Assembly: GCF_024298765.1 (NCBI RefSeq)
Contig: NZ_CP101210.1
Strand: one strand, 5' to 3'
Length of the DNA: 64,000 nt
Origin: Escherichia coli
Lineage (GTDB): Bacteria > Pseudomonadota > Gammaproteobacteria > Enterobacterales > Enterobacteriaceae
The notes beneath the pieces were generated by a model, which searched no databases, had not been told where the DNA came from, and saw only the letters and a program-made list of their open reading frames with translations. Positions 2,903 to 29,726 of the stretch are shown here, in pieces. Within the stretch, counting starts at the first letter, position 1; every line of letters starts with the position of its first letter. The translations under genes were made by a program, and so were the position numbers.

Positions 2903-3247
2903 ATGTATTTACGACCAGACGAGGTGGCGCGCGTACTTGAAAAAGTCGGTTTTACTGTCGATGTGGTAACCCAGAAGGCTTATGGTTACCGCCGTGGGGA
3001 AAATTATGTCTATGTTAATCGCGAAGCGCGAATGGGACGTACCGCCCTGGTGATTCATCCAACATTAAAAGAACGTAGTTCAACACTGGCTGAACCCGCT
3101 TCCGATATTAAAACTTGCGATCATTATCAACAATTTCCGCTCTATTTAGCAGGCGAGCGACACGAGCATTACGGTATCCCGCATGGCTTTAGTTCGCGTG
3201 TTGCGCTTGAACGTTATTTGAATGGTTTATTTGGCGAAGCCAGTTAA
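2903..3247 (+). CDS. ygaC: YgaC, small conserved protein of unknown function
   Basis: 114-aa [35 protein letters not shown]...; synteny. Confidence 0.8.
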
Positions 3248-3250
3248 AGA

Positions 3251-3278
3251 CGCGACTGGCGATGCCAGTCGCGAAAAG
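3251..3278. terminator. Hairpin between convergent ygaC and alaE
   Basis: gcgactggcgatgccagtcgc inverted repeat. Confidence 0.4.
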
Positions 3279-3283
3279 AAGGG

Positions 3284-3733
3284 TCAGGCTTTTACCTGCT
3301 GGTAACGGCTGACTTTAAACAGTCGGCGGCAATAATCGAGGAAGTAGCCATAAACCGCCCCCATCAACATCGAAACAACGATGTTTGAACTGACCGCCGC
3401 CATAATCTGATGCCAGTCTGCGCCCACCACTAACAAGATCGCCACATACACCGGTGACTGGAACGTCACATAAGCCATGATATCCGCCAGATTTTTTATC
3501 CAGCCCGACGGGCTAACTTTGCGTGCTGCGCGCATAAACAGATCGCGGTACATACCGTATGGCCATGCAATTAAGATGTTTACCGGAATCGCTACCAATC
3601 TGGAATAAAAAGACTGTTCGAAGCTCATTCCGGAGAGGAAAACTTCAATACACATGTTCACGACAGAACAGTAAACAACCATCGCGAACGTATCTGCAAC
3701 TGCATGACGCAAGCGTGACTGCGGTGAGAACAT
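3284..3733 (-). CDS. alaE: L-alanine exporter AlaE
   Basis: ORF track gives 186 aa; recalled AlaE (149 aa) begins [16 protein letters not shown], placing the start at 3733. Confidence 0.8.
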
Positions 3734-4399
3734 GCTAATGCTCCTTAATAAAAGCGTAATGGGATGTGAATGGAGATGAAAGCAGTGGATCTCATTGCCA
3801 TCTGCATTTTTGCATAGCGTATATCGCTGGCTATGACTAATCAATTAGTGAAAAATTTTTATTTAATCTGTTTTTGTAGATAAAATATTCCGTAGCGGCG
3901 CGTTTTTTGCACATTGTGGATTTTTACATGCCGATATGATTTATTTTTAATTAAATCAATTGGATATGTGTTTACCTTTATTTTCACTCATGAAGGTTTG
4001 GGGGGGGGTAACGCTATAAGCGTAGAGAATTCGGTGTATGTAGTGATCGGGTCATTTTCAGCATTTTTTATGCCAGATAATGTACATTGACAGCAGAAAG
4101 CACCAGTGATAGATGTTTTCTTTTATTCTGTTGAGTTGCATTTTTATTCACTTTGGTTTTGTCGGGCTTGCGGAATTAGCGAGCAGAGAGCGCCGCTCTG
4201 TTCACCAATAACCTAAATTACTCATCAAAATGGCTAATATATAATCTTGAAATTATTCTGAGGGTTTCAGAAAATAACAGCTGAAATAATCTCGTGCAGG
4301 ACTGTAAATAGATTAAATTTTGTGGAAATATAATAAGTGATCGCTTACACTACGCGACGAAATACTTTTTTGTTTTGGCGTTAAAAGGTTTTCTTTATT

Positions 4400-15050: not shown

Positions 15051-15866
15051 ATGTTGCAGCCAGCAAAAAAAGCATCAGTTATTAGCGCGCGGCTAACGAA
15101 ATACCTCAAAGATGGAGTGAGGATTGATGACTTTAGCTTTAGAAGGATGTTACGTGAGATTGAAGCACTTAGAGATCCTGTCTCTGAGGACTATCTTTTA
15201 GCGTTGGTCTATGGTGCACATGGCCAAGTGAATGAGGCGATAGGCTTCTTTGAGCGTTCCTTGCAGGTATGCCATAATGAGGTTGTTGCAAAGAATTTTC
15301 TTGTTTTCTTGTCAGATTACGGTACGTTGAAGAAAAGCTTTGAAACAAGCATTAAGCTTGCTGAAAGCTTCATATCCCCGTTTATTTATCTTCAAGCTTA
15401 TGAAAACTCCCTCTTTATGGGGAAGATGGCGTTGGCGGAGAAGTATTTCCAGTCATACTCTAAATTGTTCGGAGATAAGGAGCCTGAAAAAATGGACAAC
15501 AATCTTGATGAAGTTGTTTCCCAGGTCGAATCCTTTAAGCAACGTGCCGATCTTTCTGGTTTAGAATATGAACTTATTTTCAATAATGTAGCCAATGTCA
15601 TGGATTCTCAGAAGGTTCATCTTTCGGGAATGCGTTTTTATAATATTTCGGAAGAGAAAGTGAATGCGATTGTATTCATGACAAAGTCTTCTGATGCTGA
15701 ACAAATCGCTGATATGAATATTGAGCTTGCTTTTTCAATGGCTGAGCACGATTGTTTAGTCGGTAAAGATTTTGCTGTTTGGTTTGAATGTAAAGACACA
15801 CATATTGAGCAGAATGCTATCTCCGAATTAGGTCTGATTACCCGGAGGGTTGCACATGCCGGTTAA
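15051..15866 (+). CDS. Hypothetical protein (271 aa), first gene of a two-gene cargo operon beside attL/int; function unknown
   Basis: Clean ORF, soluble and helical-looking, no motif I recognise; AT-rich by eye; AT-rich upstream leader. Confidence 0.55.
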   Translation: MLQPAKKASVISARLTKYLKDGVRIDDFSFRRMLREIEALRDPVSEDYLLALVYGAHGQVNEAIGFFERSLQVCHNEVVAKNFLVFLSDYGTLKKSFETSIKLAESFISPFIYLQAYENSLFMGKMALAEKYFQSYSKLFGDKEPEKMDNNLDEVVSQVESFKQRADLSGLEYELIFNNVANVMDSQKVHLSGMRFYNISEEKVNAIVFMTKSSDAEQIADMNIELAFSMAEHDCLVGKDFAVWFECKDTHIEQNAISELGLITRRVAHAG

Positions 15867-16239
15867 TAGTCAAGATTTTCTCGGTTTTGCAAAAGACTGT
15901 CATCAACGTAATGACGAAATCGGCTATCGAAATGCTATAGCAAGATCCTACTATGGCGCTTACCATCATGTCTTGCCTTGTATGGTAAACGGGCCGAAAG
16001 ACAGTCATCAGGGGCTAATCAATTATTTGCAGGGCGATGCTTCAAGAGGAAGTGAAGTATATGAAGCTAGATATCTAAAAGGGATTAGTTTTATCCTGAG
16101 TCAACTTAAAGCTCAGAGGATTGTTGCAGACTATCGACTTGATCAATCGGTCACTTCTAAACAGTCTGAAGTTGCGATTCTAACAACTGAGAGGCTCTTT
16201 GCTAAGTGTACGGAAATGCTTAAATCGAGAGCCTCCTAA
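15850..16239 (+). CDS. Hypothetical protein (129 aa), overlaps upstream gene by 17 nt; contains an R-x6-H dyad (RSYYGAYHH)
   Basis: Overlapping start implies translational coupling; followed by a terminator hairpin at 16246-16270. Confidence 0.5.
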   Translation: MHMPVNSQDFLGFAKDCHQRNDEIGYRNAIARSYYGAYHHVLPCMVNGPKDSHQGLINYLQGDASRGSEVYEARYLKGISFILSQLKAQRIVADYRLDQSVTSKQSEVAILTTERLFAKCTEMLKSRAS

Positions 16240-16245
16240 TTGATA

Positions 16246-16270
16246 AAGCCACTTAAGTGGCTTTTTTTGT
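16246..16270. terminator. Hairpin plus T-run between the convergent cargo operon and int
   Basis: aaagccacttaagtggcttttttt. Confidence 0.6.
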
Positions 16271-17425
16271 GATATTGCTGGTCGTATTACCGTCATATTC
16301 CTTTAAATATAAACCATAATGACGAAATAACATTTCCGGCCCTTTATGCCCCATTTGAGCTGCAAGCCAAAACAGGTTTGCTCCCCGGCTGATATGGCGG
16401 GTGGCGAATGTATGCCTAGTTTGATATGGATTTCTGTAACGAATACCTGCTTTTCGCAATGTTGGCACCCATGCTTTTTTCCTGATTGCATCAGCACTTG
16501 CCCAAGGCTTATTGGTCTTTGGATCTTCAAAGACAGTAGTATCCTTCATGAATGTAAATGGCTTCTGATTTATCAGCGCCAACATTGCCTCTTCTGTCAG
16601 TTCAACTTTCCGAGTACCTGCTTTTGTCTTTGTCCCTTTGATAACACCGACAACACTTGCGCTCTGGACATGGGCAGTTTTTCCAACAAAGTCGATATCA
16701 CGCCATCGAAGGGCACATAATTCAGAACTACGCAGGCCTGTATGTATAGCGAACCGGAACAGATTTTCCCATTGTTTGTTTCCGGCTGCTGCTAGTAATG
16801 CATCAACTTCTGCTGGTGATAGCGGATCAACTACGTAGCTGCTTTCTGCTTCTGACTTATCACTTTGGTAGCGCGAAGCTGTTACTAACGATACGGGGTT
16901 AATTTGAAGTACCCCATCGGTCACGGCTTCATCAAGTGCTGACCGCAGGAAAGATAACTGGTTGCGAATTGTTTTTAAGGTCGTTTTCTGATTTTGAATC
17001 CACGCTTTCAGGGTTGCTGGTGTTAATTCACTTGCAGGGCAAATGTGAAGTGAGGCTAACGCACTACGGCATTTTTTATAGCCACCAATCGTAGAGGGTG
17101 AAAGTTTTCTTGTTTCGCAGATTTCAAGATATTCGTCCAGGTACATCTTTACCGTTTTGCCTGCAGCAGCATTACCAAAAATTTTCAAACGAGCAGAACG
17201 GGGAAAATATTCTGCATAAATGAATGTTCCCCTTTCGATCTTATTATGGATTTCGCCGAGTGTACGCTCGGCGTATTTAATGTTCTTTGGTGTTACTTCC
17301 AGATTGGAAAGCGGCTCACGACATCTAACTCCTTTGTAGGTGAAAGTTATATTGATCGTTTCTCCCTGGCGGTGTTTCCTGATTGTTACGCCGCGCGGTA
17401 GTTTGAGCAGTTTTGTCTGGCCCAT
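16253..17425 (-). CDS. int: Phage integrase, tyrosine recombinase family
   Basis: 390-aa ORF with C-terminal catalytic region (...HTGLRSSELCALRWRDID...RHTFATRHISRGANLFWLAAQMGH...); adjacent to xis and the att region. Confidence 0.85.
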   Translation of the reverse strand: MGQTKLLKLPRGVTIRKHRQGETINITFTYKGVRCREPLSNLEVTPKNIKYAERTLGEIHNKIERGTFIYAEYFPRSARLKIFGNAAAGKTVKMYLDEYLEICETRKLSPSTIGGYKKCRSALASLHICPASELTPATLKAWIQNQKTTLKTIRNQLSFLRSALDEAVTDGVLQINPVSLVTASRYQSDKSEAESSYVVDPLSPAEVDALLAAAGNKQWENLFRFAIHTGLRSSELCALRWRDIDFVGKTAHVQSASVVGVIKGTKTKAGTRKVELTEEAMLALINQKPFTFMKDTTVFEDPKTNKPWASADAIRKKAWVPTLRKAGIRYRNPYQTRHTFATRHISRGANLFWLAAQMGHKGPEMLFRHYGLYLKEYDGNTTSNITKKAT

Positions 17426-17631
17426 TTTGCAACCTCACTAAGATCAATCCACCTCTCCTTAACGCCTTCAACCTTTAAAACCTGAACACCTTCACGCCAA
17501 ACACCGCGCTGTACACGTTTGTTTATTGCTTCAGGAGTTTCGCCAGTTTCTTTGCAATAAGTTGAGATAGGAACACAATCGAGGTTCAGCATACGTTTCT
17601 CCATTATCCCGTCTGCACACGGGAGCAACAT
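17386..17631 (-). CDS. xis: Putative excisionase / small DNA-binding protein
   Basis: 81-aa basic ORF immediately upstream of and overlapping int by 40 nt, as in lambda xis-int; exact start uncertain. Confidence 0.5.
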   Translation of the reverse strand: MLLPCADGIMEKRMLNLDCVPISTYCKETGETPEAINKRVQRGVWREGVQVLKVEGVKERWIDLSEVAKWARQNCSNYRAA

Positions 17632-17633
17632 TA

Positions 17634-18524
17634 TTAACGAATAGTGTCGTTACTTTGAAGTACAGCAAATGCCATTAATACTTCTAAAGTATATCTTCTA
17701 TAAAATTTAACAAAACCAACATAGAAAACATAGACGAAGAAAAAGCTAAGCATTATTGAAAGTAAACTATAAAGATAATCACTATGAGTACATAATCGAT
17801 AAATAAAGGTTGGAACTGATACCCAAAATGAAATTATAAAGATTAAACATATGTTTCTGCAAAAACCATATAATGCAACATAGTTTTGAATTTTTGTTTG
17901 ATGTTGTTTTGAAAACTCATAAACATAATGATATGCCAATCTGAAGAGATCATCATCAAGTCCGTTTTTATCTTGTAATAATTGGCGATTTGTTATGAAC
18001 TTTTTCTCATAACCTTCTTTGATCATTAACCATGTTGTATTAGCTAAATGAAATGGTAGAGATTGAGAATAACATAGTTTTTGTGTTATAAAATCCCATA
18101 GTATTATTGGGCATAATACGCATTTGATTATGCGATTCTTTATTTTTGTTTTTTTATCAGCGCTTCTCTCATCGCATGATGGGCTACAAATGCTTTCTGA
18201 GGTATCTATCAATTTTTTAAATAGATATTTGGAAGGATATCCTAATTCTTTATTCATGTATTTTTCGATAAAAAATGCTGACGTGATAGAAATAAAATGT
18301 CCAGCTATATAAGATATAATAACTATTGAAGCGTAGTTCAAAATGCCAAAGATTTGACTTTGACCTCTGAGCAATTCACTTAAGTCAATAACAATATCTA
18401 GATCGAATGTCAAACCACAGAAATACATTAATAGGATAAAAAAACCACCTGGTATTAAATATCCAAGAAAGTCATAGAATGAGAATGGATTTTGATTCAT
18501 TGTTGCTCTCCAATAATTTTTCAA
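17634..18524 (-). CDS. Hypothetical integral membrane protein (296 aa; ~2 N-terminal and ~2 C-terminal TM helices around a soluble core)
   Basis: Strikingly AT-rich by eye compared with neighbours; hydrophobic stretches FFILLMYFCGLTF, IVIISYIAGHFISITSAFFI, ICLIFIISFWVSVPTFIY, LLSIMLSFFFVYVFYVGFV. Confidence 0.55.
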   Translation of the reverse strand: MKNYWRATMNQNPFSFYDFLGYLIPGGFFILLMYFCGLTFDLDIVIDLSELLRGQSQIFGILNYASIVIISYIAGHFISITSAFFIEKYMNKELGYPSKYLFKKLIDTSESICSPSCDERSADKKTKIKNRIIKCVLCPIILWDFITQKLCYSQSLPFHLANTTWLMIKEGYEKKFITNRQLLQDKNGLDDDLFRLAYHYVYEFSKQHQTKIQNYVALYGFCRNICLIFIISFWVSVPTFIYRLCTHSDYLYSLLSIMLSFFFVYVFYVGFVKFYRRYTLEVLMAFAVLQSNDTIR

Positions 18525-18608
18525 TTTGTAATATAACCTATATCTATATGTTAATAAATTACTTATATGTTCTTTTATGGCAGAGTTTGAATTCGTACGT
18601 GCTGATTT

Positions 18609-19145
18609 TTACGACTCAGTTAACTCTTTAAAGCGTTCCATAAACATCCCATAGGTATGGCCTGGCGACAGTGGAATAACTTTGAACATCTCTGTTGCCG
18701 GGATACCTTCCAGTACGGGCCAGAAAGAGCCATCATCAAGCCCGAGATCGCGGCGTTCGGTTGCCAGCATGATGAGATCGGCATATTTCACGGGCGTACT
18801 CATAACCGGGGGTAACCCGTATTTCTCACGGATTACGGCGTCTATTTTTTCTTCCATCCGTTTATAGTCAGGAAGAAGGCGTTTCAGTGGAGCCGGGATG
18901 TCCTGGCAATACGCTTCTGTTGCATCATGCATTAACGCTTCAAAAGCAAATTCCTGCGGTACCAGCTGGCTGCAAAGCACCGCATGTTGGGCGACGCTGT
19001 AGAAGTGTGAAAGATGGCCGGCAAAGCGACAGATATTTGAAAGGGAAACCGCGATATCGTTAATATCGATGTTGTCTTTATTTATCCTGTCATAATAAAA
19101 ATGTTTCCCGGAAAAAGTTTTAATAAATGACATTTTGTTCTCCAC
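18609..19145 (-). CDS. HD-domain phosphohydrolase, YfdR-like (putative 5'-deoxynucleotidase)
   Basis: 178-aa ORF with H...HD motif (ALMHDATEAY); same size and position as YfdR of prophage CPS-53. Confidence 0.65.
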   Translation of the reverse strand: MENKMSFIKTFSGKHFYYDRINKDNIDINDIAVSLSNICRFAGHLSHFYSVAQHAVLCSQLVPQEFAFEALMHDATEAYCQDIPAPLKRLLPDYKRMEEKIDAVIREKYGLPPVMSTPVKYADLIMLATERRDLGLDDGSFWPVLEGIPATEMFKVIPLSPGHTYGMFMERFKELTES

Positions 19146-19261
19146 GTTATATGCGCTGCACCGCGCTGAATTTTGGTTAAAGAAAACCCTCGCCTTCAGG
19201 CGATTATTGAGTCAATTACGTTTCCATAAATGCCCCCGCAGGGGCATTTGCAGTAATGAAA

Positions 19262-20086
19262 TCAGGCGGTGAAAGTCCCAATAAAGGTTTCTACTTTGCT
19301 GTCCTTGAATTTCTCAACAAGCAGATCACGAAATTCGTTAGCCATATCTTCCTGCACCGCTTCCAGCTGAATAATGCGCAGAACCAGTACAGGACGATCG
19401 CCAGTGATAATGCTGAGGCGTAATTTAAACGGACGTTCTTTCAGACCTTCAAACGGAACGCATTTAAACTCAAATGCCACTGGCATAATGTCTTTGGTCT
19501 TCGCTTCGACAGACTCCATCAGGGAGCGTTTGCCGCTGAAGTCATTATCTTCAAAATCAGCAGTCTGGTTTGCTTCAATCGTGATTTTACGGACCGCCGC
19601 AGCCGCTTTTGTTGCCTGAATGGTGTCACCATTAGCATCAAAGCCCACAAGATAGTCGGCCCAGTCTTCGATCCATTCTGCCAGTGATTTCTGGGAGTTA
19701 CGCTCTCCATTAACAGACAACAGAGCAGAGAACGGTGCTGTCTTTTTCAGTTTGAGAGTGGCGGTGTTATCTGCGTGACCTGGTTCATCAATAGTACCCA
19801 GGTTAAGCACACTGACGGCACGCATATTATCAGCATCGATAAAGCAGCGGGTGCCTTCATCTGCAAGATCTTTAGAATAACGGGTAAAGTCATCAATGCT
19901 GGCAGTGGAAAGCGCACCACGGAAACGGAAGCGATTTAAATTAAATTTTTCCAGATCATGAATGCGGAAATTCTCAGGCAATGCCACAGCATCGGCACCA
20001 ATCTTACTGATAATTTCATTAACACCCTGAGCAGAAATAAGAGCATGGATTTGATTAATTGCGGTTGCGTCTAAGTTCTGAGACAT
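19262..20086 (-). CDS. YfdQ-like (DUF2303) prophage early protein
   Basis: 274-aa [24 protein letters not shown]...; recalled similarity to CPS-53 YfdQ. Confidence 0.6.
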
Positions 20087-20151
20087 AATAAGTCCTCACT
20101 ATATAAAGATATTCAGTGATGAGATAAATAATCAGTTAATTAAGAACGATA

Positions 20152-20514
20152 TTAATGACCTGCTGCGCGGAGTTTTCCGTCAGGCTCACCGGCAAGAGTC
20201 AGTAATTGTCCCTGGTCTTCCTGCAGAATAGTCAGGCGACCACCGCGATTGACATACATCGGCGTTTCGGTGGTGTCTTCTTCGGAAATTTTCCCACGGT
20301 TAGTCGGGCGAACATATGAGAGTTTGTGTTTGATTTTCACACGGTTCTCATCAAATGGTTCGATTTCCAGGTTGAGTGAGACCTTACCTTTGGTTTTCGT
20401 GTTCATCACACCGGAAGCGACTTCACTGAGAACTGCGCCGATTTTGGTTTCAAATACGCCGCCGTCCAGCTCCCCGATAAATGCCTGCACATCAGTACTG
20501 CGTTCGCTAGCCAT
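20152..20514 (-). CDS. YfdP-like prophage early protein (hypothetical)
   Basis: Likely start at MASERSTD, with GAGGAG 8 nt upstream on the coding strand; track ORF extends to 20700. Confidence 0.5.
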   Translation of the reverse strand: MASERSTDVQAFIGELDGGVFETKIGAVLSEVASGVMNTKTKGKVSLNLEIEPFDENRVKIKHKLSYVRPTNRGKISEEDTTETPMYVNRGGRLTILQEDQGQLLTLAGEPDGKLRAAGH

Positions 20515-20856
20515 TTTGCTGCTCCTCATCATATCGACCCTGCAAGGCCGATTAGTTTCTCCACAAAACAGAGAAGAACACCTGCGGTGGCAGCCGCCCG
20601 GATGGATTGGGTTATGAGCCCGTCGTCCGATGATGTTCTTCTCTGTTTTGTAAAAAGAGCGGTACCAGCCGGAAGCAAGTGTACAAACTGGTACCGCCAA
20701 AGCAGTGGCTGTTGTGGTGACCGGTGCTGATCTCCGGCTTGCGGTTATTTCAGACTCTCACGGGCGTTTAATTGCCCCGCCGAACAGCTCTTTTCCGCAA
20801 TAGCTGCAATGTCTTTCGCGCATCAGCCTGCGCATTCACCACAACTCTAAAAACAA

Positions 20857-20909
20857 ATGTAGGATATCCAACGTGTGGGTGTCAAGAGTTTATGTTGGTT
20901 ATCCTACAT
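20857..20909. promoter_or_regulatory. Left operator/promoter region (OL/PL-like): two copies of the repressor operator motif
   Basis: atgtaggatatccaac and gttggttatcctacat, the same motif found three times at OR. Confidence 0.55.
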
Positions 20910-20971
20910 AAAAAGATAGGCTCATAAAAAAACCGGGGATACCCCGGTTTTGCGATAGTGAGGAAGATGTG

Positions 20972-21625
20972 TCAAAAATCCATTATTACTTGTTTGACAA
21001 GACCAACTATTCTGCAGTTCTCACCGCATTCAATAGTTTTATAGTTAGGATTTAGTGGGACGAGATACCTGTTCGGCCAGTCCTCAACAAATTTTTTGAG
21101 TGTCGCTTCTTGCCCACCATTGATATGGGCAACAACGATTTTTCCGTTAATACACTCTGTATCAATAATATCTGGCTCTACGATAACGATAGAACCTTCT
21201 GGTATCGATGGTGAGCCGAGGGGATTGGTCATTGAATCACCACGGACCCGTAGTGCAAATGCCATTTCTGATACAAGGGCGGTAGTATAAACCCACTCTT
21301 CAGCATCTTCTTTCCTGACACCAGGCTCCGTCATTGTCCATGAACCCGCCTGAACCCACGAGATGAGGGGGACTTTTTTAACTGCGAATATTTCAGGTTT
21401 TAGATTTATCTTTGGTTCAGGCGAGCCTTTTCCGCTAACAAGCCACAGAGGATCGCATTTAAGTGCGTTGGCTAGGGCTTGAAGGTTGGCTCCATTTGGT
21501 TGGTAGTCGTCCTTTTCCCATCCAGTAACCGTGACACGGTTCACACCAGTCAAATCAGCCAGTGCTTGTTGTGTCAGGTTCAGTTCTTTTCGCCTTTGGC
21601 GAATACGATCACTCATGTTCATCAT
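20972..21625 (-). CDS. CI-like prophage repressor (N-terminal XRE HTH, C-terminal S24 LexA-like peptidase domain)
   Basis: 217-aa ORF; HTH (LTQQALADLTGVNRVTVTGWE) and S24 motifs (RVRGDSMTNP ... KKF); divergent from a cro-like gene. Confidence 0.8.
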   Translation of the reverse strand: MMNMSDRIRQRRKELNLTQQALADLTGVNRVTVTGWEKDDYQPNGANLQALANALKCDPLWLVSGKGSPEPKINLKPEIFAVKKVPLISWVQAGSWTMTEPGVRKEDAEEWVYTTALVSEMAFALRVRGDSMTNPLGSPSIPEGSIVIVEPDIIDTECINGKIVVAHINGGQEATLKKFVEDWPNRYLVPLNPNYKTIECGENCRIVGLVKQVIMDF

Positions 21626-21688
21626 GTAGGCAATCCTACCACATGCTCATGTAGGATTCTTGACATTGATATGTTGGATATCCTACAT
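21624..21688. promoter_or_regulatory. Right operator region (OR1-3-like) with divergent PRM/PR promoters
   Basis: Three operator copies (atgtaggcaatcctac, atgtaggattcttgac, gttggatatcctacat); ttgaca -35 at 21660-21665; cI ATG abuts the operator. Confidence 0.6.
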
Positions 21689-21720
21689 TTCTGCTTAACG
21701 TAATTTAACGGGAGACAGAA

Positions 21721-21918
21721 ATGCGGAAATCCGACGTGATTAATTATTTCGGCGGAGTTTGTAAAACCGCCGAAGCCCTAGGTATTAAGCATCCGTCTGT
21801 TTCAGAGTGGCCTGAGATTATTCCTGAAGGCCGAGCGTACCAGTTAGAAAAAATTACTAACGGGAAACTGAAAGTTGACGTGTCTTTATATCAAAAGACT
21901 AACAGTGCTGCGGCATAA
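21721..21918 (+). CDS. Cro-like small HTH regulator (YdaS/DicC-type)
   Basis: 65-aa ORF divergent from cI directly after OR. Confidence 0.65.
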   Translation: MRKSDVINYFGGVCKTAEALGIKHPSVSEWPEIIPEGRAYQLEKITNGKLKVDVSLYQKTNSAAA

Positions 21919-21945: not shown

Positions 21946-22530
21946 GTGGGTAAAGAACCTGAATGGAAAGTTGATAAACAACCAGCATGGCTGGTGGCAG
22001 CAATACGAAGAACGATTGCTGATTTACCTCATGGCTATGAGGAAGCAGCAGAAATTCTTGGTTTGTATAAATCTGATGATATCACCCCAGCAAAAGATCA
22101 ATTGCATAACAGACTGCGTAGCGGTGGGGATCAAATTTTTCCACTTGAGTGGGCCATGGTTTTACAGGATGCCAGTGGTACCAGGCATGTAACAGATGCA
22201 ATAGCCCGTCGTAGTAATGGGGTGTTTGTGCCGCTGGTGGTCATTGATGACATTGACAATGGTGACATTAATCAGCGGCTGATGGAGTCAATAGAATGGA
22301 TTGGCAAGCATTCCCAGTACTTACGCAAGGCAACTGCTGATGGAGTTATTGACCAAGCTGAGCGTGAGCAAATCGAAGAGAACAGCTACCAAGTAATGGC
22401 GAAGTGGCAGGAGCATTTAACACTGTTATTTCGTGTTTTTTGTGCGCCGGAAAAGAGTAACGCCCGCGAGTGTGCAGCTCCGGGCGTCGTGGCGTCGATT
22501 GCTTCTGGTTGTGGAGAAACTAACGCATGA
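21946..22530 (+). CDS. YdaT-like (CII-position) prophage regulatory protein
   Basis: 194-aa ORF, GTG start with GAGG upstream; position after cro. Confidence 0.5.
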
Positions 22531-22865
22531 ACAGTTTAACAACACACTACCGTCGTTCGCAACTGATTGCGCTTCCTGTACCGGGTGGAAAAGCGAAGGT
22601 GGAGTATTGCTATGCAGTGAATGTACCAGGTGATAGGGAAATTGTAACCCACAGCTTTGCAGAGTGGGCTGTGGGTGATTTCAACCGGCAGAAGGAGACA
22701 GTCCTTTGCGACAAGTTAACCGCTGGTTCAAAGATCACTACGGAGTGCCCGTCAGAGTCATTCGTTGGGAGCCGGAAACACAACGGGTTATCTACCTCCG
22801 TGAAGGCTATGAACATGAATGCTTCAGTCCGCTCGAACAGTTTCGTCGTAAATTCAGGGAAATAG
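22527..22865 (+). CDS. Hypothetical protein (112 aa); may be the 5' part of a frameshifted gene
   Basis: ORF overlapping the 22706-22918 ORF in another frame. Confidence 0.3.
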
Positions 22866-22918
22866 AGGTCGGTCATGAGCCTGTTAATGACATCCCAGCC
22901 CATTGTGATAAATCGTGA
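22706..22918 (+). CDS. Hypothetical protein (70 aa); may be the 3' part of a frameshifted gene
   Basis: Overlaps the upstream ORF and the replication-gene start. Confidence 0.3.
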
Positions 22919-23867
22919 TCTTGCATGCCGTATTGGTCTGAATGAGGCAATTGTGTTGCAGCAGCTTCATTACTGGCTGAATGAAACGAATTCAGGCACT
23001 GAGCATGGCGGAATTCGCTGGGTTTATAACACGACAGAACAGTGGCTGGAGCAGTTTCCGTTCTGGTCAGAGTCCACTCTGAAACGCACATTTGCAAGCC
23101 TGAAATCACTTGGGGTTTTGCGTCGCGAGCAACTCAATAAATCGAAGCGTGACATGACCAACTTCTACACGATCAACTATGAAAGTGAGCTTTTAGAAGA
23201 GGTCAAAGTGAACGAATCCATCAGGTCAAAATGCACTTCTCCATCGGGTCAAAGTGACCTGATGGATGAGCGCAAAATGACACGATCCATTGGTTCAAAA
23301 CGACACGCTGTCATCGGGTCAAAATGGCCCAATGATCTTACAGAGAATACAACAGAGATTACTACAGAGAATAAAACCTCTTCTCGTCCGGACGCTTCGC
23401 AACCGGACACGCAGATGGCTGAACAGGATTTTTTAACTCGCCATCCTGATGCGGTTGTATTCAGCCCTAAAAAGCGCCAGTGGGGAACGCAGGATGATTT
23501 GACCTGCGCACAGTGGCTCTGGAAAAAAATCATCGCTCTGTACGAGCAGGCCGCCGAATGTGACGGCGAAGTGGTACGTCCTAAAGAACCGAACTGGACA
23601 GCCTGGGCAAACGAAATTCGCCTGATGTGTGTACAGGATGGGCGTACTCACAAACAAATCTGCGAGATGTACAGCCGCGTCAGCCGCGATCCGTTCTGGT
23701 GCCGTAACGTGCTCAGCCCGTCGAAGCTGCGGGAAAAATGGGATGAGCTTTCCCTGCGCTTATCGCCGTCCGTCAGCACGTACACAGAAAAACGCGAAGA
23801 TCCGTACTTCAAAGCCAGTTACGACAACGTGGACTACAGCCAGATCCCGGCAGGATTCAGGGGGTGA
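22875..23867 (+). CDS. Phage replication initiator (lambda O-like / replisome organiser) with embedded origin iterons
   Basis: 330-aa ORF with N-terminal DNA-binding-like region; iterons inside the coding sequence as in lambda O. Confidence 0.7.
   Translation: MSLLMTSQPIVINRDLACRIGLNEAIVLQQLHYWLNETNSGTEHGGIRWVYNTTEQWLEQFPFWSESTLKRTFASLKSLGVLRREQLNKSKRDMTNFYTINYESELLEEVKVNESIRSKCTSPSGQSDLMDERKMTRSIGSKRHAVIGSKWPNDLTENTTEITTENKTSSRPDASQPDTQMAEQDFLTRHPDAVVFSPKKRQWGTQDDLTCAQWLWKKIIALYEQAAECDGEVVRPKEPNWTAWANEIRLMCVQDGRTHKQICEMYSRVSRDPFWCRNVLSPSKLREKWDELSLRLSPSVSTYTEKREDPYFKASYDNVDYSQIPAGFRG
23199..23326. repeat. Origin-type iterons: five direct repeats of ~CATCRGGTCAAARTG inside the replication gene
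   Basis: gaggtcaaagtg, ccatcaggtcaaaatg, ccatcgggtcaaagtg, ccattggttcaaaacg, tcatcgggtcaaaatg, followed by an A/T-rich stretch. Confidence 0.7.
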
Positions 23868-23869
23868 TC

Positions 23870-23962
23870 ATGAGTCTTTTGAATGAAGTTCAGAAATTCA
23901 TTGAAGCCCATCCGGGGTGTACTTCCGGAGACATTGCGGATGCTTTTTACGTGGGGGCTTAA
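23870..23962 (+). CDS. Possible small coupled ORF (30 aa) between the replication gene and the methylase
   Basis: ATG overlaps the upstream stop; TAATG overlap with the methylase start; found by hand. Confidence 0.3.
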   Translation: MSLLNEVQKFIEAHPGCTSGDIADAFYVGA

Positions 23963-24615
23963 TGAGTAATAAATATTGTCAGGCGCTGGTGGAGCTGCGG
24001 AACAAACCATCCCATGAACTGAAGGAGGTGGGCGATCAGTGGCGCACGCCGGACAGCATTTTCTGGGGAATTAACACCTTGTTTGGCCCGTTTGTTCTGG
24101 ATCTGTTCACTGACGGTGATAACGCCAAATGTGCCGCGTATTACACGGCGGAAGACAACGCGCTGGCGCATGACTGGTCAGAACGCCTTGCGGAGCTTAA
24201 AGGTGCTGCCTTTGGCAATCCCCCATACAGTCGCGCCAGTCAGCATGAGGGGCAATACATCACCGGCATGCGTTACATCATGAAACATGCCAGTGCCATG
24301 CGTGATAAGGGCGGGCGCTATGTTTTCCTGATCAAAGCTGCCACCAGCGAAGTGTGGTGGCCGGAAGATGCGGACCATATTGCTTTTATTCGCGGGCGTA
24401 TTGGTTTTGAACTGCCTGCCTGGTTTATCCCGAAAGATGAGAAGCAGGTGCCGATAGGCGCTTTCTTCGCTGGTGCTATTGCTGTTTTTGACAAGACCTG
24501 GAAGGGACCGGCAATCAGCTACATCGGGCGCGATGAACTTGAGGCATGTGGTGAGGCCTTTCTGGCGCAGGTTCGCCAGCAGGCAGAAAAACTGGTCAGG
24601 GAGATGGTGGCATGA
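23962..24615 (+). CDS. Phage-type DNA N6-adenine methyltransferase (Dam-like, orphan)
   Basis: Start at MSNKYCQALVEL (track ORF starts at 23917); contains the FGNPPY motif, a D/N-PP-Y/F-type catalytic signature. Confidence 0.7.
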   Translation: MSNKYCQALVELRNKPSHELKEVGDQWRTPDSIFWGINTLFGPFVLDLFTDGDNAKCAAYYTAEDNALAHDWSERLAELKGAAFGNPPYSRASQHEGQYITGMRYIMKHASAMRDKGGRYVFLIKAATSEVWWPEDADHIAFIRGRIGFELPAWFIPKDEKQVPIGAFFAGAIAVFDKTWKGPAISYIGRDELEACGEAFLAQVRQQAEKLVREMVA

Positions 24616-25001
24616 AGCTGATCCTGCCTTTTCCGCCCAGCGTGAACACGTACTGGCGACACCCCAACAAAGGGGCGTTTGCTGGTAAGAGCCTGATAAG
24701 CGCGGCGGGGCGAAAATTCCAGAGCGCGGCGTGCGCAGCAATAGTTGAGCAGTTACGTCGTCTGCCGAAACCAACGTCGGCACCTGCTTCAGTGGAGATC
24801 GTGTTGTTTCCTCCGGATAACCGGATCCGCGATCTGGACAACTATAACAAGGCGCTGTTTGACGCCCTGACCCACGCGGGTGTGTGGGAAGACGACAGTC
24901 AGGTGAAAAGAATGCTGGTGGAGTGGGGACCGGTTATCCCGGGAGGGAAGGTCGAGATCACTATCAGTAAGTACGAGAAAACGGCGGGTGCAGCCGCCTG
25001 A
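24612..25001 (+). CDS. rusA: RusA-family Holliday junction resolvase
   Basis: 129-aa ORF MKLILPFPPSVNTYWRH...DLDNYNKALFDALTHAGVWEDDSQV. Confidence 0.8.
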   Translation: MKLILPFPPSVNTYWRHPNKGAFAGKSLISAAGRKFQSAACAAIVEQLRRLPKPTSAPASVEIVLFPPDNRIRDLDNYNKALFDALTHAGVWEDDSQVKRMLVEWGPVIPGGKVEITISKYEKTAGAAA

Positions 25002-25020
25002 TTAAGAGGAGAAACGAAGT

Positions 25021-25818
25021 ATGAATAATCTGATGGTCATTGATGGTATTGAAGTTCGTCGTGATGCTTATGGTCGTTACAGCCTGAACGATCTGCACAG
25101 GTCTGCCGGTTCTCTGGATAAGCATAAGCCTGCATTCTGGCTCCGCAATGAGCAAACTGAACGTTTAATAAGCGAGTTGCAGATTTGCAACTCGGTCAAT
25201 ATAGAGCCAGTTAACGTTATTCGTGGCGGAAATAACCAGGGGACGTATGTCTGCAAAGAACTGGTGTATGCCTATGCAATGTGGATCAGCCCGTCATTCC
25301 ATCTGAAGGTGATCCGTACTTTCGACATGGTAACCAGCGCACCGGAAAAATTATCCGGACAGGCTGCTGACAAGATGCAGGCTGGTGTGATCCTGCTGGA
25401 CTTTATGCGCCGGGAATTAAACCTGTCTAACTCATCAGTGCTTGGAGCCTGTCAGAAGCTTCAGGAGGCTGTTGGCTTACCGAATCTGGCACCGCGCTAT
25501 GCCATTGATGCTCCTGCTGATGCACTCGATGGCTCAAGCCGCCCGACACTGTCACTGAGTGCACTGCTGAAGCAGTATGGTATCCGCCTGACAGCTAATC
25601 AGGCATATCACCAGATGGCGAAGCTGGGGATCGTTGAACAACGTGAACGATACAGCCGCACTGCGATTAACAACATCAAAAAATTCTGGTCGCTGACGGC
25701 GAAAGGCTGCATGTTCGGCAAGAACATCACCAGTCCCGCAAATCCGCGCGAGACGCAGCCGCATTTCTTCGAATCCCGATTCCCTGAGCTGTTAAAGCTG
25801 CTCGATACCGTTCATTGA
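25021..25818 (+). CDS. KilA-N-domain protein (antirepressor-like)
   Basis: N-terminal pattern (IDGIEVRRDAYGRYSLNDLHRSAG...KPAFWLRNEQT) typical of KilA-N. Confidence 0.6.
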   Translation: MNNLMVIDGIEVRRDAYGRYSLNDLHRSAGSLDKHKPAFWLRNEQTERLISELQICNSVNIEPVNVIRGGNNQGTYVCKELVYAYAMWISPSFHLKVIRTFDMVTSAPEKLSGQAADKMQAGVILLDFMRRELNLSNSSVLGACQKLQEAVGLPNLAPRYAIDAPADALDGSSRPTLSLSALLKQYGIRLTANQAYHQMAKLGIVEQRERYSRTAINNIKKFWSLTAKGCMFGKNITSPANPRETQPHFFESRFPELLKLLDTVH

Positions 25819-25819
25819 G

Positions 25820-26815
25820 GTGACCGTGAGAGCACTACTGACCCCTGAAATTGCCCCGCGTATGGGGATCGTATTGTTCAGACCAGGTTCAGAGCTGATG
25901 CCCTTGTTTATGCAGGGGCGTGTCCTGCTGGAGCCTGAGCCGGAACGTTATTCATCTTTCGCCAGTGGTGCCGTTCCGGCGGCATCACAACCGCTGGCGG
26001 ATGATCCTGCCGTTCGGGCCGTGTTCCGCAATGAGGCAGTGATCCGTCGTGCTGGTGGCGTGGAATGTCTTGAAAGCTGGTTACTTCGTGAAAAAGGCTG
26101 CCAGTGGCCTCATTCCGGCTGGCACAGCGAGAACATGACAACAATGCGACACGCTCCGGGCGCAATCCGTCTGTGCTGGCACTGCGATAACCAGCTGCGC
26201 GATCAGTTCACGGAACGGCTGGAATCAATGGCAACGGATAACTGTGCCCGCTGGGTGTTGTCTGTTGTGCGTCGGGATCTCGGTTTTGATGACAGTCATG
26301 TTGTGACAATGCCGGAACTGTGCTGGTGGCTGATTCGTAATGATCTGGCGGATGCCTTACCGGAAAGTGCAGCCCGTAAGGCACTGAGATTACCGAAGCC
26401 TGTTGTGCCGTCTGTTACCCGGGAAAGTGACCTTGTGCCTTCGGTTCCTGCCACCAGCATCATCCAGGATAAGGCGAAAAAGGTGCTGGCGCTGAAAGTG
26501 GATCCGGAGTCGCCGGAGTCTTTTATGTTACGCCCAAAACGTCGCCGCTGGGTTAATGAAAAGTACACGCGCTGGGTTAAGACACAGCCGTGTGCATGTT
26601 GTGGAAAGCCCGCTGATGATCCCCACCACCTGATAGGTCACGGTCAGGGTGGAATGGGAACAAAAGCGCATGACCTCTTTGTGTTGCCTTTGTGCAGAAA
26701 GCATCACGACGAGCTGCATGCGGATACCGTGGCATTTGAAGAGAAGTATGGCTCTCAGCTGGAGCTGATATTTCGTTTTATCGATCGTGCGCTGGCAATT
26801 GGCGTATTGGCGTAA
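25820..26815 (+). CDS. DUF968 (YdfU-like) prophage protein with C-terminal Cys/His cluster
   Basis: C-terminal CACCGKPADDPHHL...CRKHHDELH motif. Confidence 0.55.
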   Translation: MTVRALLTPEIAPRMGIVLFRPGSELMPLFMQGRVLLEPEPERYSSFASGAVPAASQPLADDPAVRAVFRNEAVIRRAGGVECLESWLLREKGCQWPHSGWHSENMTTMRHAPGAIRLCWHCDNQLRDQFTERLESMATDNCARWVLSVVRRDLGFDDSHVVTMPELCWWLIRNDLADALPESAARKALRLPKPVVPSVTRESDLVPSVPATSIIQDKAKKVLALKVDPESPESFMLRPKRRRWVNEKYTRWVKTQPCACCGKPADDPHHLIGHGQGGMGTKAHDLFVLPLCRKHHDELHADTVAFEEKYGSQLELIFRFIDRALAIGVLA

Positions 26816-26828
26816 GTGGAGAACGAGC

Positions 26829-27581
26829 ATGAACCTTGAAGCCTTACCAAAATATTACTCCCCAAAATCTCCAAAATTGAGCGATGACGCACCGGCGACA
26901 GGCTCTGGTGGTTTAACAATTACGGATGTAATGGCTGCGCAGGGGATGGTGCAGTCGAAAGCACCGCTTGGGTTTGCCTTATTCCTGGCAAAAGTTGGTG
27001 TTCAGGATCCTCAGTTTGCGATTGAAGGTCTGCTCAATTACGCGATGGCACTGGATAACCCGACATTGAATAAATTGAGTGAAGAAACCCGGCTACAGAT
27101 CATTCCTTACCTTGTGAATTTTGCCTTTGCTGATTATTCCAGGTCTGCGGCAAGTAAGGCTCGCTGTGAGCATTGTGCTGGTACTGGATTTCATAATGTA
27201 TTGCGCGAGGTGGTGAAACACTCCAGAAGCGGGGAATCTGTTATCAAGGAAGAGTGGGTGAAGGAACTATGTCAGCATTGTCATGGTAAGGGAGAAGTCA
27301 GCACAGCGTGCAGAGGGTGTAAGGGTAAAGGTATTGTCCTGGATGAAAAAAGAACCCGGCTTCATGGTACGCCTGTTTATAAGATTTGTGGGCGTTGCAA
27401 TGGTAACCGTTTTAGCCGTTTACCAACCACACTGGCGCGGCATCATGTCCAGAAGCTGGTACCAGACCTGACGGATTATCAGTGGTACAAAGGATATGCA
27501 GATGTCATTGATAAACTGGTTACAAAGTGCTGGCAGGAAGAAGCATATGCAGAGACACAATTGAGAAAAGTGACAAGATAA
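26829..27581 (+). CDS. Late-gene antiterminator Q (zinc-binding)
   Basis: CEHCAGTG...CQHCHGKG...CRGCKGKG Cys clusters; immediately upstream of a promoter plus terminator pair and the lysis genes. Confidence 0.7.
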   Translation: MNLEALPKYYSPKSPKLSDDAPATGSGGLTITDVMAAQGMVQSKAPLGFALFLAKVGVQDPQFAIEGLLNYAMALDNPTLNKLSEETRLQIIPYLVNFAFADYSRSAASKARCEHCAGTGFHNVLREVVKHSRSGESVIKEEWVKELCQHCHGKGEVSTACRGCKGKGIVLDEKRTRLHGTPVYKICGRCNGNRFSRLPTTLARHHVQKLVPDLTDYQWYKGYADVIDKLVTKCWQEEAYAETQLRKVTR

Positions 27582-27612
27582 ATGATTTTCGCCGAAGATG
27601 GCGACATGATGC

Positions 27613-27715
27613 TTGCATTTTTCAAAAAATCTGGTTAGGATTCTCCTAACGATGGGCTTTGTATGTCTGCCGTTAACGAAATCATAACAAACCTCGCTTC
27701 GGCGGGGTTTTTGCT
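27613..27715 (+). promoter_or_regulatory. Late promoter PR'-like with downstream tR'-like terminator (Q-utilisation region)
   Basis: ttgcat -35-like hexamer at 27613; terminator hairpin cctcgc-ttcg-gcgggg plus ttttt at 27690-27715. Confidence 0.55.
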
Positions 27716-27731
27716 TTTCTGGAGGTCAATA

Positions 27732-27989
27732 ATGCAGGGCGAAAAGCAGCAGCCATATTTTTTTAACCCTGGTATGACTGTTGAACAGCTTGAAGACTGG
27801 CTGGAGCAGCAAAAGCTTCATCTAAGCCGCTATAACCGTCTGGTAAAAGAAAAAGCAGAGCTTGAAGAACGGCTCAGTGATATTTCTGTGGAAATTGAAC
27901 GAATGTCTGCTGGTGGTTTTAACGGAAAGTTGAGTTTCCCCTGGGAGTCAAGTTCGCTTCTGAGAAATCATCAACAGGGTAGTGTTTGA
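27732..27989 (+). CDS. Hypothetical late protein (85 aa)
   Basis: GGAGG 6 nt upstream of ATG 27732; first ORF after the tR'-like terminator. Confidence 0.4.
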   Translation: MQGEKQQPYFFNPGMTVEQLEDWLEQQKLHLSRYNRLVKEKAELEERLSDISVEIERMSAGGFNGKLSFPWESSSLLRNHQQGSV

Positions 27990-28068
27990 CTGAAATAATA
28001 AACAGACTGTCATTAAGATCCCTTCCCCTCATATCTGAGAGGACCAACAGCAATTAAGAGGGGGCTAA

Positions 28069-28455
28069 ATGTCCGATCCGATTTCCGGTACTGGGCTGGC
28101 TGGTGGTGCCCTGACGGGTGCCAGTGTTTATGGACTGCTGACCGGAACTGATTACGGCGTTGTATTTGGCGCATTTGCAGGGGCTGTATTCTACATAGCA
28201 ACAGCAGCAGATCTGAGTGCATCGCGTCGACTGGCATATTTTATCGTGTCATATATTGCCGGGATTCTTTGCTCTGGGTTGGTTGGCTCCAAGCTGGCGA
28301 ACTTGACCGGATACAGTGATAAACCTCTGGATGCTATTGGTGCCGTAATCGTCTCTGCTTTAGCCGTTAAAATCCTGACGTTCCTGAATAATCAGGATAT
28401 CGGCTCGCTGGTGGCGCTCATAACGCGCCGGGGAGGTTCAGGTGGAGCTAAATGA
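28069..28455 (+). CDS. Putative holin (membrane protein, lysis cassette)
   Basis: 128-aa hydrophobic ORF directly upstream of the endolysin. Confidence 0.6.
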   Translation: MSDPISGTGLAGGALTGASVYGLLTGTDYGVVFGAFAGAVFYIATAADLSASRRLAYFIVSYIAGILCSGLVGSKLANLTGYSDKPLDAIGAVIVSALAVKILTFLNNQDIGSLVALITRRGGSGGAK

Positions 28456-28723
28456 CCCGACAGCAACTATAAATGCGCTGTTATGTGCTTGTGTTGTTAT
28501 TACTCTGATGTTTTATCGTCGTGGTGATTCGCGGCATCGTCCTTGGGTTTCACGTTTAGCCTGGCTGATTACTGTTACATACAGTGCTGTTCCGTTGGCC
28601 TATCTCTGTGGGATTTATCCTCATTCCTCATGGCCCATTATCGTGGCGAACACTATTTTTCTTTCCGTGCTGGTGGCCGTCAGAGGCAACGTTGCACGTC
28701 TGGTTGATCATCTGAGGCACTAA
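28442..28723 (+). CDS. Second small lysis-cassette membrane protein (holin/antiholin candidate)
   Basis: 93-aa ORF with TM segments, overlapping the neighbouring genes. Confidence 0.5.
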   Translation: MELNDPTATINALLCACVVITLMFYRRGDSRHRPWVSRLAWLITVTYSAVPLAYLCGIYPHSSWPIIVANTIFLSVLVAVRGNVARLVDHLRH

Positions 28724-29337
28724 TGAACCAACAATTATTTCAAAAGGCGGCTGGTATTAGCGCCGGGCTGGCTGCGCGCTGGTTTCCGCACATTGATGCG
28801 GCGATGAAGGAATTCGGCATTACAGCACCAGCGGATCAGGCAATGTTTATCGCTCAGGTAGGCCATGAGTCGATGGGGTTTAGCGCCGTAGTTGAAAATT
28901 TTAACTACACACCATCTGCGCTGGTGGCGACGTTCGGAAAGAGGATCACACAGCAGCAGGCTGATGCCCTTGGCAGAACATCCGGACATGCAGCTCGTCA
29001 GGATGCTATTGCCAATCTGGTGTATAGCAACCGACTGGGTAACAAAGCACCAGGTGATGGCTGGAAATATCGTGGTAGAGGATTAATTCAAATCACTGGC
29101 CTCCATAATTATCGCATCTGTGGCGCGGCGCTGAAGTTAGATCTGGTGACTTCACCTGAACAACTGGAACAGGAACTACAGGCTGCGCGCTCAGCTGCAT
29201 GGTTCTACACCTCTAAAGGTTGCATGATCTACGGTGCCGATATTAACCGTGTTACGCGCATCATTAACGGCGGTCTGAACGGTATTGAGGATCGTAAGGT
29301 CCGATACAACAAGGCGCGGGCGGCGCTGCTGGTATGA
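28723..29337 (+). CDS. Endolysin, glycoside hydrolase family 19 (chitinase-like lysozyme)
   Basis: 204-aa ORF with GH19-like motifs (FIAQVGHESMGF, KYRGRGLIQITG). Confidence 0.75.
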   Translation: MNQQLFQKAAGISAGLAARWFPHIDAAMKEFGITAPADQAMFIAQVGHESMGFSAVVENFNYTPSALVATFGKRITQQQADALGRTSGHAARQDAIANLVYSNRLGNKAPGDGWKYRGRGLIQITGLHNYRICGAALKLDLVTSPEQLEQELQAARSAAWFYTSKGCMIYGADINRVTRIINGGLNGIEDRKVRYNKARAALLV

Positions 29338-29726
29338 AGATGAGTTATTGGGCGCTCATTTTAACGTTTATTGCTTGTGTCGCTGGTGGTCTTGTCTGGT
29401 CAGCGAATCACTATCATGGAAAGTTTCTGGAGGAGCAGAAGCGTGCTGATGCTGCGGAACAGCGAGCTGATTCTACTGAGGCTATCACCGCGAATGTTCT
29501 GCGTACTATGGCAATAACGAACATCATTCAGGAGGCGAATCAACATGCAAAACAGCAGATCGCACTGGAGTCACAGAGAACCCAGGAAGATATCAAAGTG
29601 GCTGTTGCGGATGATGATTGTGCTTCACGTCCTGTGCCTGCTGCCGCTGCTGACCGGTTGCGGAAGTACGCGAACAGTTTACGTCCAGGTTCCGGTAGTT
29701 CCGTTACCAGCCAGCCTGACGGCTGA
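29334..29726 (+). CDS. i-spanin (Rz-like), N-terminal TM plus coiled coil
   Basis: 130-aa ORF with N-terminal TM and charged helical region; follows the endolysin. Confidence 0.7.
   Translation: MKMSYWALILTFIACVAGGLVWSANHYHGKFLEEQKRADAAEQRADSTEAITANVLRTMAITNIIQEANQHAKQQIALESQRTQEDIKVAVADDDCASRPVPAAAADRLRKYANSLRPGSGSSVTSQPDG

Follow-up and report, generated by a model that had tools for sequence, protein, structure and literature searches.

The stretch of Escherichia coli DNA analysed here (64,000 nucleotides of contig NZ_CP101210.1, assembly GCF_024298765.1; hereafter the window) carries three consecutive minus-strand genes, yfdP, yfdQ and yfdR, within an SfV-like lambdoid prophage. The interval they occupy is the yfdP-yfdQ-yfdR early-left cassette of this prophage, orthologous to that of the K-12 prophage CPS-53, and encodes an intact HD-domain phosphohydrolase. 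An initial annotation of this DNA had placed a block resembling yfdP-yfdQ-yfdR at positions 18609-20514. BLASTP against the K-12 CPS-53 proteins bears out the resemblance: YfdP is identical at 119 of 120 positions (99%, E 3e-90), YfdQ at 272 of 274 (99%, E 0.0) and YfdR at 164 of 173 (95%, E 2e-129). The extent likewise stands, as the interval consists of three consecutive minus-strand open reading frames (ORFs), reaching from the stop of yfdR to the start of yfdP.

In the direction of transcription, yfdP (20152..20514) encodes a 120-amino-acid YfdP-family protein (PF27127, phrog_204), yfdQ (19262..20086) a 274-amino-acid DUF2303/YfdQ-family protein (PF10065, phrog_210) and yfdR (18609..19133) a 174-amino-acid HD-domain phosphohydrolase of the YfdR/Atu1052 family (phrog_318). 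A 128-nucleotide spacer (19134..19261, minus strand) between yfdQ and yfdR contains two small hairpins with a T-run after the second and a predicted terminator-like site at 19203-19190; in K-12, yfdPQ is annotated as a separate operon (PMC9181523). Gene order, strand and spacing are those of CPS-53 and of SfV orf32-31-30. The yfdR start is the ATG at 19133, with a GGAG Shine-Dalgarno sequence 7 nucleotides upstream; K-12 YfdR starts at the same methionine, as does yfdR in the annotation made by the PGAP pipeline for a 98.9%-identical genome. A GTG at 19145 was rejected as the start of yfdR, falling as it does within the Shine-Dalgarno sequence. A 182-amino-acid, TTG-extended version of yfdP was also rejected, since it would cross the hairpins of the upstream leader and both K-12 and PGAP start the gene at 20514.

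The prophage itself combines lambdoid early regions with a contractile tail; its match to SfV covers 68% of 24.8 kb at 97% identity. Its leftward order, with promoter and operators predicted, is that of a lambdoid early-left operon: cI, pL/OL, leader, yfdPQR, a membrane-protein ORF, xis and int. The early-left placement made at the outset is thus upheld, the three genes lying between a CI-like repressor and xis/int, on the same strand and downstream of a predicted pL.

Of 5426 complete E. coli genomes, 3131 contain loci 97-99% identical to the DNA of 18400-20800, a single genome having as many as seven copies, and RefSeq names the genes at these loci yfdP, yfdQ and 'yfdR: 5'-deoxynucleotidase'. 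Among phages, the same cassette DNA turns up in 56 records; mEp460, 1720a-02 and numerous Stx2 phages are among them. Judged by these identities, the three genes are near-identical copies of a known cassette that the majority of complete E. coli genomes carry. The cassette is already known in a wider sense, too: its genes are named and annotated, it appears in the phage literature, and one of its products has been characterised biochemically. As first stated, the finding is therefore an ordinary one and matters little. Its remaining value is modest and lies in the function of phrog_204 and phrog_210, both among the most abundant protein families of phages, in the physiological substrate of YfdR and in the bearing of its DnaA binding on phage growth.

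Family and catalytic residues of YfdR

Full-length identity to K-12 b2361 and the phrog_318 assignment (E 1e-106) place the window protein in the YfdR orthologue group. The initial annotation had pointed out an H...HD motif, and its residues, H50, H69-D70 and D119, are present and conserved across 49 family representatives (40-66% identity in the alignment). In the same set, each of R36, H50, H69, D70, E73, D78 and D119 is either invariant or conserved to 90% or more. H69, D70, E73 and D78 align with H68, D69, E72 and D77 of YfbR both in BLASTP and in hhalign. The outer three residues, R36, H50 and D119, correspond to YfbR R18, H33 and D137 by motif order alone, because a three-sequence MAFFT alignment and hhalign mis-registered the N-terminus and the first histidine. 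YfdR thus carries the H...HD...D metal-ligand motif of the HD-domain metal-dependent phosphohydrolase superfamily, and conservation of the catalytic residues shows the enzyme to be intact and under selection. As read from these residues, YfdR is a catalytically complete HD-domain metal-dependent phosphohydrolase.

Membership in the superfamily does not extend to YfbR in particular. The Pfam matches of YfdR are below threshold (YfbR-like PF12917, 24.4 bits against a cut-off of 25.9; HD_3 also weak), and the NCBIfam YfbR equivalog model NF003009 gives 20 bits against a cut-off of 122. By these scores YfdR is not a YfbR equivalog and should not be filed as one. In PDB sequence searches the nearest solved structure is Atu1052 (2GZ4; E 3e-12 for YfdR alone as the query and 3e-29 for the profile of its family), and YfbR (2PAQ) comes next at 1e-4. 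The family is very broad: it comprises 22,789 clusters at 50% identity (E up to 1e-3) and is found in 324 phage records, from lambdoids to Caulobacter phiCbK and phages of Bacillus and Stenotrophomonas. Such breadth argues for a generic enzymatic role.

One position deserves separate mention. Trp19 of YfbR reportedly adjoins the 2'-carbon of the substrate and is said to have been proposed as a deoxyribose selectivity switch. By motif order, read by eye, the corresponding position in YfdR appears to be Phe37, within a 'CRF' consensus. K-12 YfdR is reported to dephosphorylate cytidine monophosphate (CMP) (PMC10870394), and a phenylalanine in place of Trp19 is consistent with this reported activity on CMP as well. 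According to PMC4776307, which cites Zimmerman 2008, K-12 YfdR is structurally homologous to YfbR and acts as a nucleotide phosphatase with much lower nucleotide affinity. The phosphohydrolase proposed in the initial annotation, likened there to a 5'-deoxynucleotidase, therefore finds support in the complete catalytic set, in the RefSeq name of its orthologues and in the phosphatase activity of the K-12 protein (PMC10870394).

Control region and leader

Upstream of yfdP, the window retains what appears to be a native lambdoid control region. A pL-like promoter is predicted at 20856..20885 on the minus strand (TTGACA, an 18-nucleotide spacer, TACATT), and its hexamers are identical to those of a divergent pR-like promoter at 21660-21689. 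Two palindromes close to ATGTAGGATATCCTACAT (20856-20874 and 20891-20909) are predicted OL operators, and similar palindromes occur twice at pR (21624-21639 and 21670-21688); a 40-nucleotide inverted repeat connects the two regions. As far as sequence can tell, this palindrome layout is the classic OL/OR arrangement. The repressor predicted to control the cassette (20972..21625, minus strand) has the Pfam domains HTH_3 and Peptidase_S24 and is annotated as a LexA-family protein in the 98.9%-identical genome. A P22-Cro-like gene (21721-21918) diverges from it. The repressor transcript would end at a predicted intrinsic terminator at 20929..20951 (minus strand), with a 10-bp GC-rich stem followed by U7 (-15.2 kcal/mol). 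Since CI-type operators overlie the predicted pL, the lysogen should keep the cassette repressed and induction should switch it on. Expression during induction had been assumed in the initial annotation and is consistent with this layout.

Between pL and yfdP lies a leader of about 340 nucleotides (20515..20855, minus strand), which fold prediction resolves into three elements and which as a whole folds far better than shuffled controls (z -4.7). The first element is a multi-stem domain (20711-20845) with the closing stem GUUGUGGUGA/UCACCACAAC. The second is a 13-bp hairpin (20658-20698; -21 kcal/mol, z -5.0) followed by UCUUUUU (U-run 20650-20657), and it looks like an intrinsic terminator. 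The third is a long hairpin (20559-20655) with a 24-bp outer stem (-46 kcal/mol, z -7.6). The leader is common to SfV (locus L004, 6648-6960) and absent from K-12. ST64B (locus L090, 2640-2945) keeps all three elements; its terminator stem stands in the same place ahead of CTTTTTAC but differs throughout in sequence, and in its long hairpin one G-C pair has become A-U and one A-U pair G-C, both compensatory changes. An Rfam search of the 16-23 kb region returned nothing above noise and hence no leader family, and no second, putR-like copy of the leader was found in the window. The modelled leader could be a put-like cis-acting antiterminator or an attenuator; there is no N-like gene here. In Hafnia phage yong2, the equivalent position between cI and yfdP is occupied by a tRNA-Gly(CCC) gene (locus L091, 2837-2910), and there is a resemblance between the closing stem of the first domain of the window leader and the sequence that runs from just upstream of this tRNA into the beginning of its acceptor stem (GUUGUGGUG).

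The corresponding region of K-12 has been rearranged. There, a deletion joins yfdO/ori sequence to a point about 25 bp from the yfdP start, and homology with the window begins at that point. In K-12, SrsR binds the yfdO-yfdP spacer that this junction forms (PMC9181523). That spacer, which has four TCAGATTTTGA SrsR boxes (locus L001, 9248-9604), is not homologous to window positions 20515-20971. Because the SrsR site lies in the deletion junction, SrsR control of yfdPQ would be specific to K-12, and such regulation probably reflects a junction peculiar to CPS-53.

Function of the cassette and competing readings

Taken together, the predictions outline how the cassette may work, and we give this overall account a probability of roughly three in four. 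It would be silent in the lysogen, with CI bound to the operators over pL, and would be transcribed leftward on induction or infection, read-through of the leader terminator setting its level of expression. By orthology with K-12 YfdR, the window protein would be a low-affinity nucleoside and deoxynucleoside 5'-monophosphate phosphatase and would also be able to bind domain I of DnaA. Its most likely role would be that of an early accessory enzyme that dephosphorylates nucleoside or deoxynucleoside monophosphates or a related phosphoester, and it may additionally damp initiation at the host oriC.

Several observations weigh against this account. Promoter, operators and terminator have been predicted from consensus matches and from folding. 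In K-12, deletion of yfdQRST has no replication phenotype (PMC4776307) and deletion of yfdR leaves the yield of CMP unchanged (PMC10870394). Because YfdR scores below the YfbR cut-offs and apparently has Phe37 in place of Trp19, its true substrate may not be a deoxynucleoside monophosphate. The published inhibition of initiation by the K-12 genes required yfdS or yfdT, neither of which was found in the window. The sole documented cellular effect of the K-12 genes concerns DnaA and initiation at oriC and not nucleotide pools (PMC4776307), and the low substrate affinity of YfdR argues for caution about any effect on deoxynucleoside triphosphate or monophosphate pools, which the initial annotation had raised as a possibility.

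That documented effect is the starting point of a second reading, in which the main role of YfdR is to take over host replication. The protein would bind DnaA domain I at Phe46, block the contacts of DnaA with DiaA and DnaB and switch off oriC after induction, which would make DnaB and the replisome available to a phage whose only initiator, as in LLS, seems to be O-like; HD activity would be secondary. K-12 YfdR does bind DnaA domain I in a manner dependent on DnaA Phe46, competes with DiaA and DnaB and inhibits initiation in vivo (in multicopy) and in vitro (PMC4776307, PMC5448010). In addition, no recognisable P, DnaB-like or DnaC-like gene is present among the scanned early-right ORFs, and LLS has been described in the same terms (PMC12315714). 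However, the block to initiation in vivo required multicopy yfdQ-yfdR together with yfdS or yfdT, yfdP being dispensable (PMC4776307; reviewed in PMC5448010), and the authors of PMC4776307 themselves allowed for an overexpression artefact. The catalytic residues are, moreover, strictly conserved throughout a huge family that includes proteins of Caulobacter, Bacillus and Rhizobium phages. Their conservation in phages for which contacts with Phe46 of E. coli DnaA are irrelevant suggests that selection acts on the enzyme. We regard host-replication takeover as an unlikely main role of YfdR.

A third reading concerns YfdP and YfdQ. Both belong securely to their families: YfdQ matches PF10065 (DUF2303) over residues 7-272 with 309.9 bits (cut-off 26.6), and YfdP matches phrog_204 with an E of 1e-49. 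The PF27127 assignment of YfdP is the precomputed one of a 99%-identical cluster representative. AlphaFold2 models of the two proteins (mean predicted local distance difference test 76 for YfdQ and 71 for YfdP) had no meaningful fold neighbours in a PDB library that extended to April 2026 and did not include entry 9O7M.

We traced the two genes beyond close relatives of the cassette. A scan of viral contigs with the YfdQ alignment gave only loci 99-100% identical to it; five distant phage loci were found by tblastn on a phage collection, and profile hidden Markov models built from our own alignments were run against their six-frame ORFs. In all five, a YfdP homologue lies directly upstream of a YfdQ homologue (for Xanthomonas phage CP2, the hhalign probability of the YfdP homologue is 99.2%), and in none of them was a YfdR homologue found within the fetched flanks of up to 4-5 kb. 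The neighbours of the pair are DUF1351-like, Erf, exonuclease, endonuclease and SSB genes in CP2; a nucleotide kinase gene, the sole one annotated, in Pseudomonas SC_9_H1H8; a DnaQ-like gene and SSB in Vibrio 36E38.1; a DNA helicase gene among hypothetical ones in Vibrio D71; and DUF2800, DUF2815, PolA, clamp, VRR-NUC, DUF551 and helicase genes in Acinetobacter 4316. A sixth phage, Stx2a phiON-2011, to which the models were not applied, has two adjacent ORFs of the sizes of YfdP and YfdQ right after recT-exo, and no HD gene is annotated near them. Going by these homologies, the block is two units, an old, obligate yfdP-yfdQ pair and a separately associated HD gene, yfdR, that joined the pair in enterobacterial lambdoids (ST64B, Hafnia yong2, LLS, SfV); by the same comparisons, the pair is much more widespread than the full block. 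Neighbours such as SSB, Erf/RecT, exonuclease, DnaQ-like and PolA genes point to an accessory role of YfdP and YfdQ in DNA replication or recombination.

The PDB holds one homologue of YfdQ, entry 9O7M ('YfdQ Protein'), with 36 chains, an E of 3.5e-44, about 40% identity and the same length. The sequence of the 9O7M protein is 99% identical to that of a CP2-like Xanthomonas podophage protein. The first YfdQ chain listed for this entry is labelled C. Chain 2ipa_B is presumably the second chain of its own entry, which suggests that the chain listed is the first with a given sequence, and this in turn suggests that chains A and B of 9O7M, if the convention holds, are something other than YfdQ. 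PDB sequence searches indicate that these two chains are not homologues of YfdP, YfdR or the CP2 neighbour genes, and the CP2 neighbours ORF38 and ORF36 have no match in the PDB; chains A and B could possibly be nucleic acid. With 36 copies in 9O7M, YfdQ might form a large, possibly nucleic-acid-bound assembly. Our literature search found no publication for the entry. A paper on the PhiXacm4-11 virion was considered as its source and rejected, because it deposits other entries and does not mention a YfdQ protein.

The third reading, then, takes yfdP-yfdQ, and perhaps the whole cassette, for a module of replication or recombination that has so far gone unrecognised. YfdQ would act as a large assembly on DNA, and the module would substitute for or cooperate with host RecBCD-Chi in lambdoids that lack exo, bet and gam. 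The prophage provides a suitable setting. Pfam and PHROG searches gave no matches to a recombinase, an exonuclease or Gam among the early-left ORFs (16253-20971). The segment 21990-39276 has 15 Chi sites (GCTGGTGG) on the plus strand versus 2 on the minus strand, and 12 Chi sites lie in the 7.4 kb of the early-right region (21990-29382). With these features, the prophage falls into the 'no Rec module, high Chi' class of PMC12315714 (the LLS functional type), and in such Rec-less, Chi-rich lambdoids yfdP-yfdQ might aid recombination-dependent replication. The distant pairs beside Erf, exonuclease and SSB, DnaQ-like, PolA, clamp, DUF2800, DUF2815 and recT-exo genes also fit this idea, as do the 36 YfdQ chains of 9O7M, with its first two chains that are not protein homologues of the neighbour genes, and the mild sensitivity of a yfdQ deletion to methyl methanesulfonate and hydrogen peroxide (cited in a passage of PMC4776307). 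PMC12315714, which describes the cassette (LLS gp37-39, ST64B gp35-37) as common in lambdoid early-left operons and as comprising one putative 5'-nucleotide phosphatase and two proteins of unknown function, considers a hidden recombinase unlikely, since phages with complete Rec modules also carry the cassette. We hold this reading to be doubtful. Equally tentative are two more novel ideas: yfdP-yfdQ may be an unrecognised two-protein DNA-transaction module, and the conserved pL leader may be a cis-acting, put-like antitermination element of a phage group without N.

Finally, it is purely speculative and highly improbable that YfdR serves anti-defence by breaking down a toxic nucleotide analogue made by the host or an immune signal derived from a nucleotide: a predicted early-expressed phosphohydrolase, widespread in phages, would suit such a task, and its low affinity for ordinary monophosphates, reported in a passage of PMC4776307, leaves room for another substrate, but PADLOC gave no match for YfdP, YfdQ or YfdR, no link was found in the literature, and in PDB sequence searches none of the known anti-CBASS, anti-Pycsar or anti-Thoeris enzymes came up as similar. 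The early-left cassette with an intact HD phosphohydrolase remains the preferred reading.

Neighbouring genes and comparison with known systems

Downstream of yfdR, the minus strand encodes a 288-amino-acid predicted membrane protein (17634..18500, phrog_12528) in the place held by yfdS-yfdT in CPS-53 and SfV; its only PADLOC match is a weak, Csx27-like one (E 1e-5). The C-terminal residues of YfdR depart from those of the K-12 protein exactly at the junction with this ORF. Searches with K-12 YfdS (a DUF551 protein), YfdT, YpdJ and TorI (tblastn) found none of these genes in the window, and the full yfdPQRST block is thus not present there. An excisionase-like ORF (17386-17631 at most, minus strand; phrog_2917) and a tyrosine integrase gene (16253-17425, minus strand; Pfam Arm-DNA-bind_2 and Phage_integrase) follow, and this xis-int region (16253..17631) closes the early-left operon.

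Just outside the integrase gene, at 15051-16239, are two overlapping ORFs of low GC content (about 38%) encoding 271 and 129 amino acids. Neither belongs to a Pfam family, and the second has a weak HEPN-like PADLOC match (E 1e-3). In SfV, this attachment-site end is the place of gtrABV, and the two ORFs could be defence cargo or a moron. At the right end of the prophage, a serine recombinase or invertase gene (Resolvase and HTH_7; 49651-50241) lies beside short opposed ORFs (48119-49660), which suggests an invertible tail-fibre segment. Further on, a C5 cytosine DNA methyltransferase gene (51437-52912, plus strand) and an EcoRII-type endonuclease gene (52947-54161, minus strand) adjoin ssrA, the gene for transfer-messenger RNA (54390-54752, minus strand). 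The ORF at 52947-54161 had been considered as an integrase and was rejected as such on its Pfam match to the endonuclease.

Among characterised proteins, YfbR (dCMP phosphohydrolase/5'-deoxynucleotidase; 2PAQ, 2PAR, 2PAU) shares with YfdR the HD fold and the motif core H-D...E....D, but the similarity is local (about 33% over 40 residues). YfbR is, moreover, a chromosomal housekeeping gene, whereas YfdR is a prophage gene whose affinities are much lower according to a passage of PMC4776307. Atu1052 of Agrobacterium tumefaciens (2GZ4) matches YfdR over its full length; it is uncharacterised and is a bacterial rather than a phage gene. The YfdQ protein of CP2-like Xanthomonas phage (9O7M; ORF38-ORF37 at 2639-3892 of locus L085) belongs to the same family as YfdQ of the window and is likewise preceded by a YfdP homologue. 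Its context differs, since CP2 is a podovirus with DUF1351-like, Erf, exonuclease and SSB neighbours and without an HD gene.

Closer relatives carry the cassette as such. LLS gp39-37 and ST64B gp37-35 are the same cassette, with proteins 66-90% identical to those of the window (PMC12315714). SfV orf32-orf31-orf30 has both the cassette and the pL leader in common with the window, and differs by an additional orf33 that separates cI from the leader and by the presence of the yfdS/T homologues orf29 and orf28. CPS-53 (KpLE1) b2359-b2361 has the same genes in the same order, orientation and spacing, with protein identities of 99%, 99% and 95% for yfdP, yfdQ and yfdR. In CPS-53, the last few residues of YfdR are unlike those of the window protein and the block continues into yfdS-yfdT-torI, whereas the window has the 288-amino-acid membrane ORF instead. 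Upstream of yfdP, CPS-53 has the deletion junction, whereas the window keeps the native cI-pL-leader arrangement. Because this native pL control region is kept, the intact, inducible-looking SfV-like prophage described here would be a better system for studying the cassette than the decayed CPS-53 of K-12.

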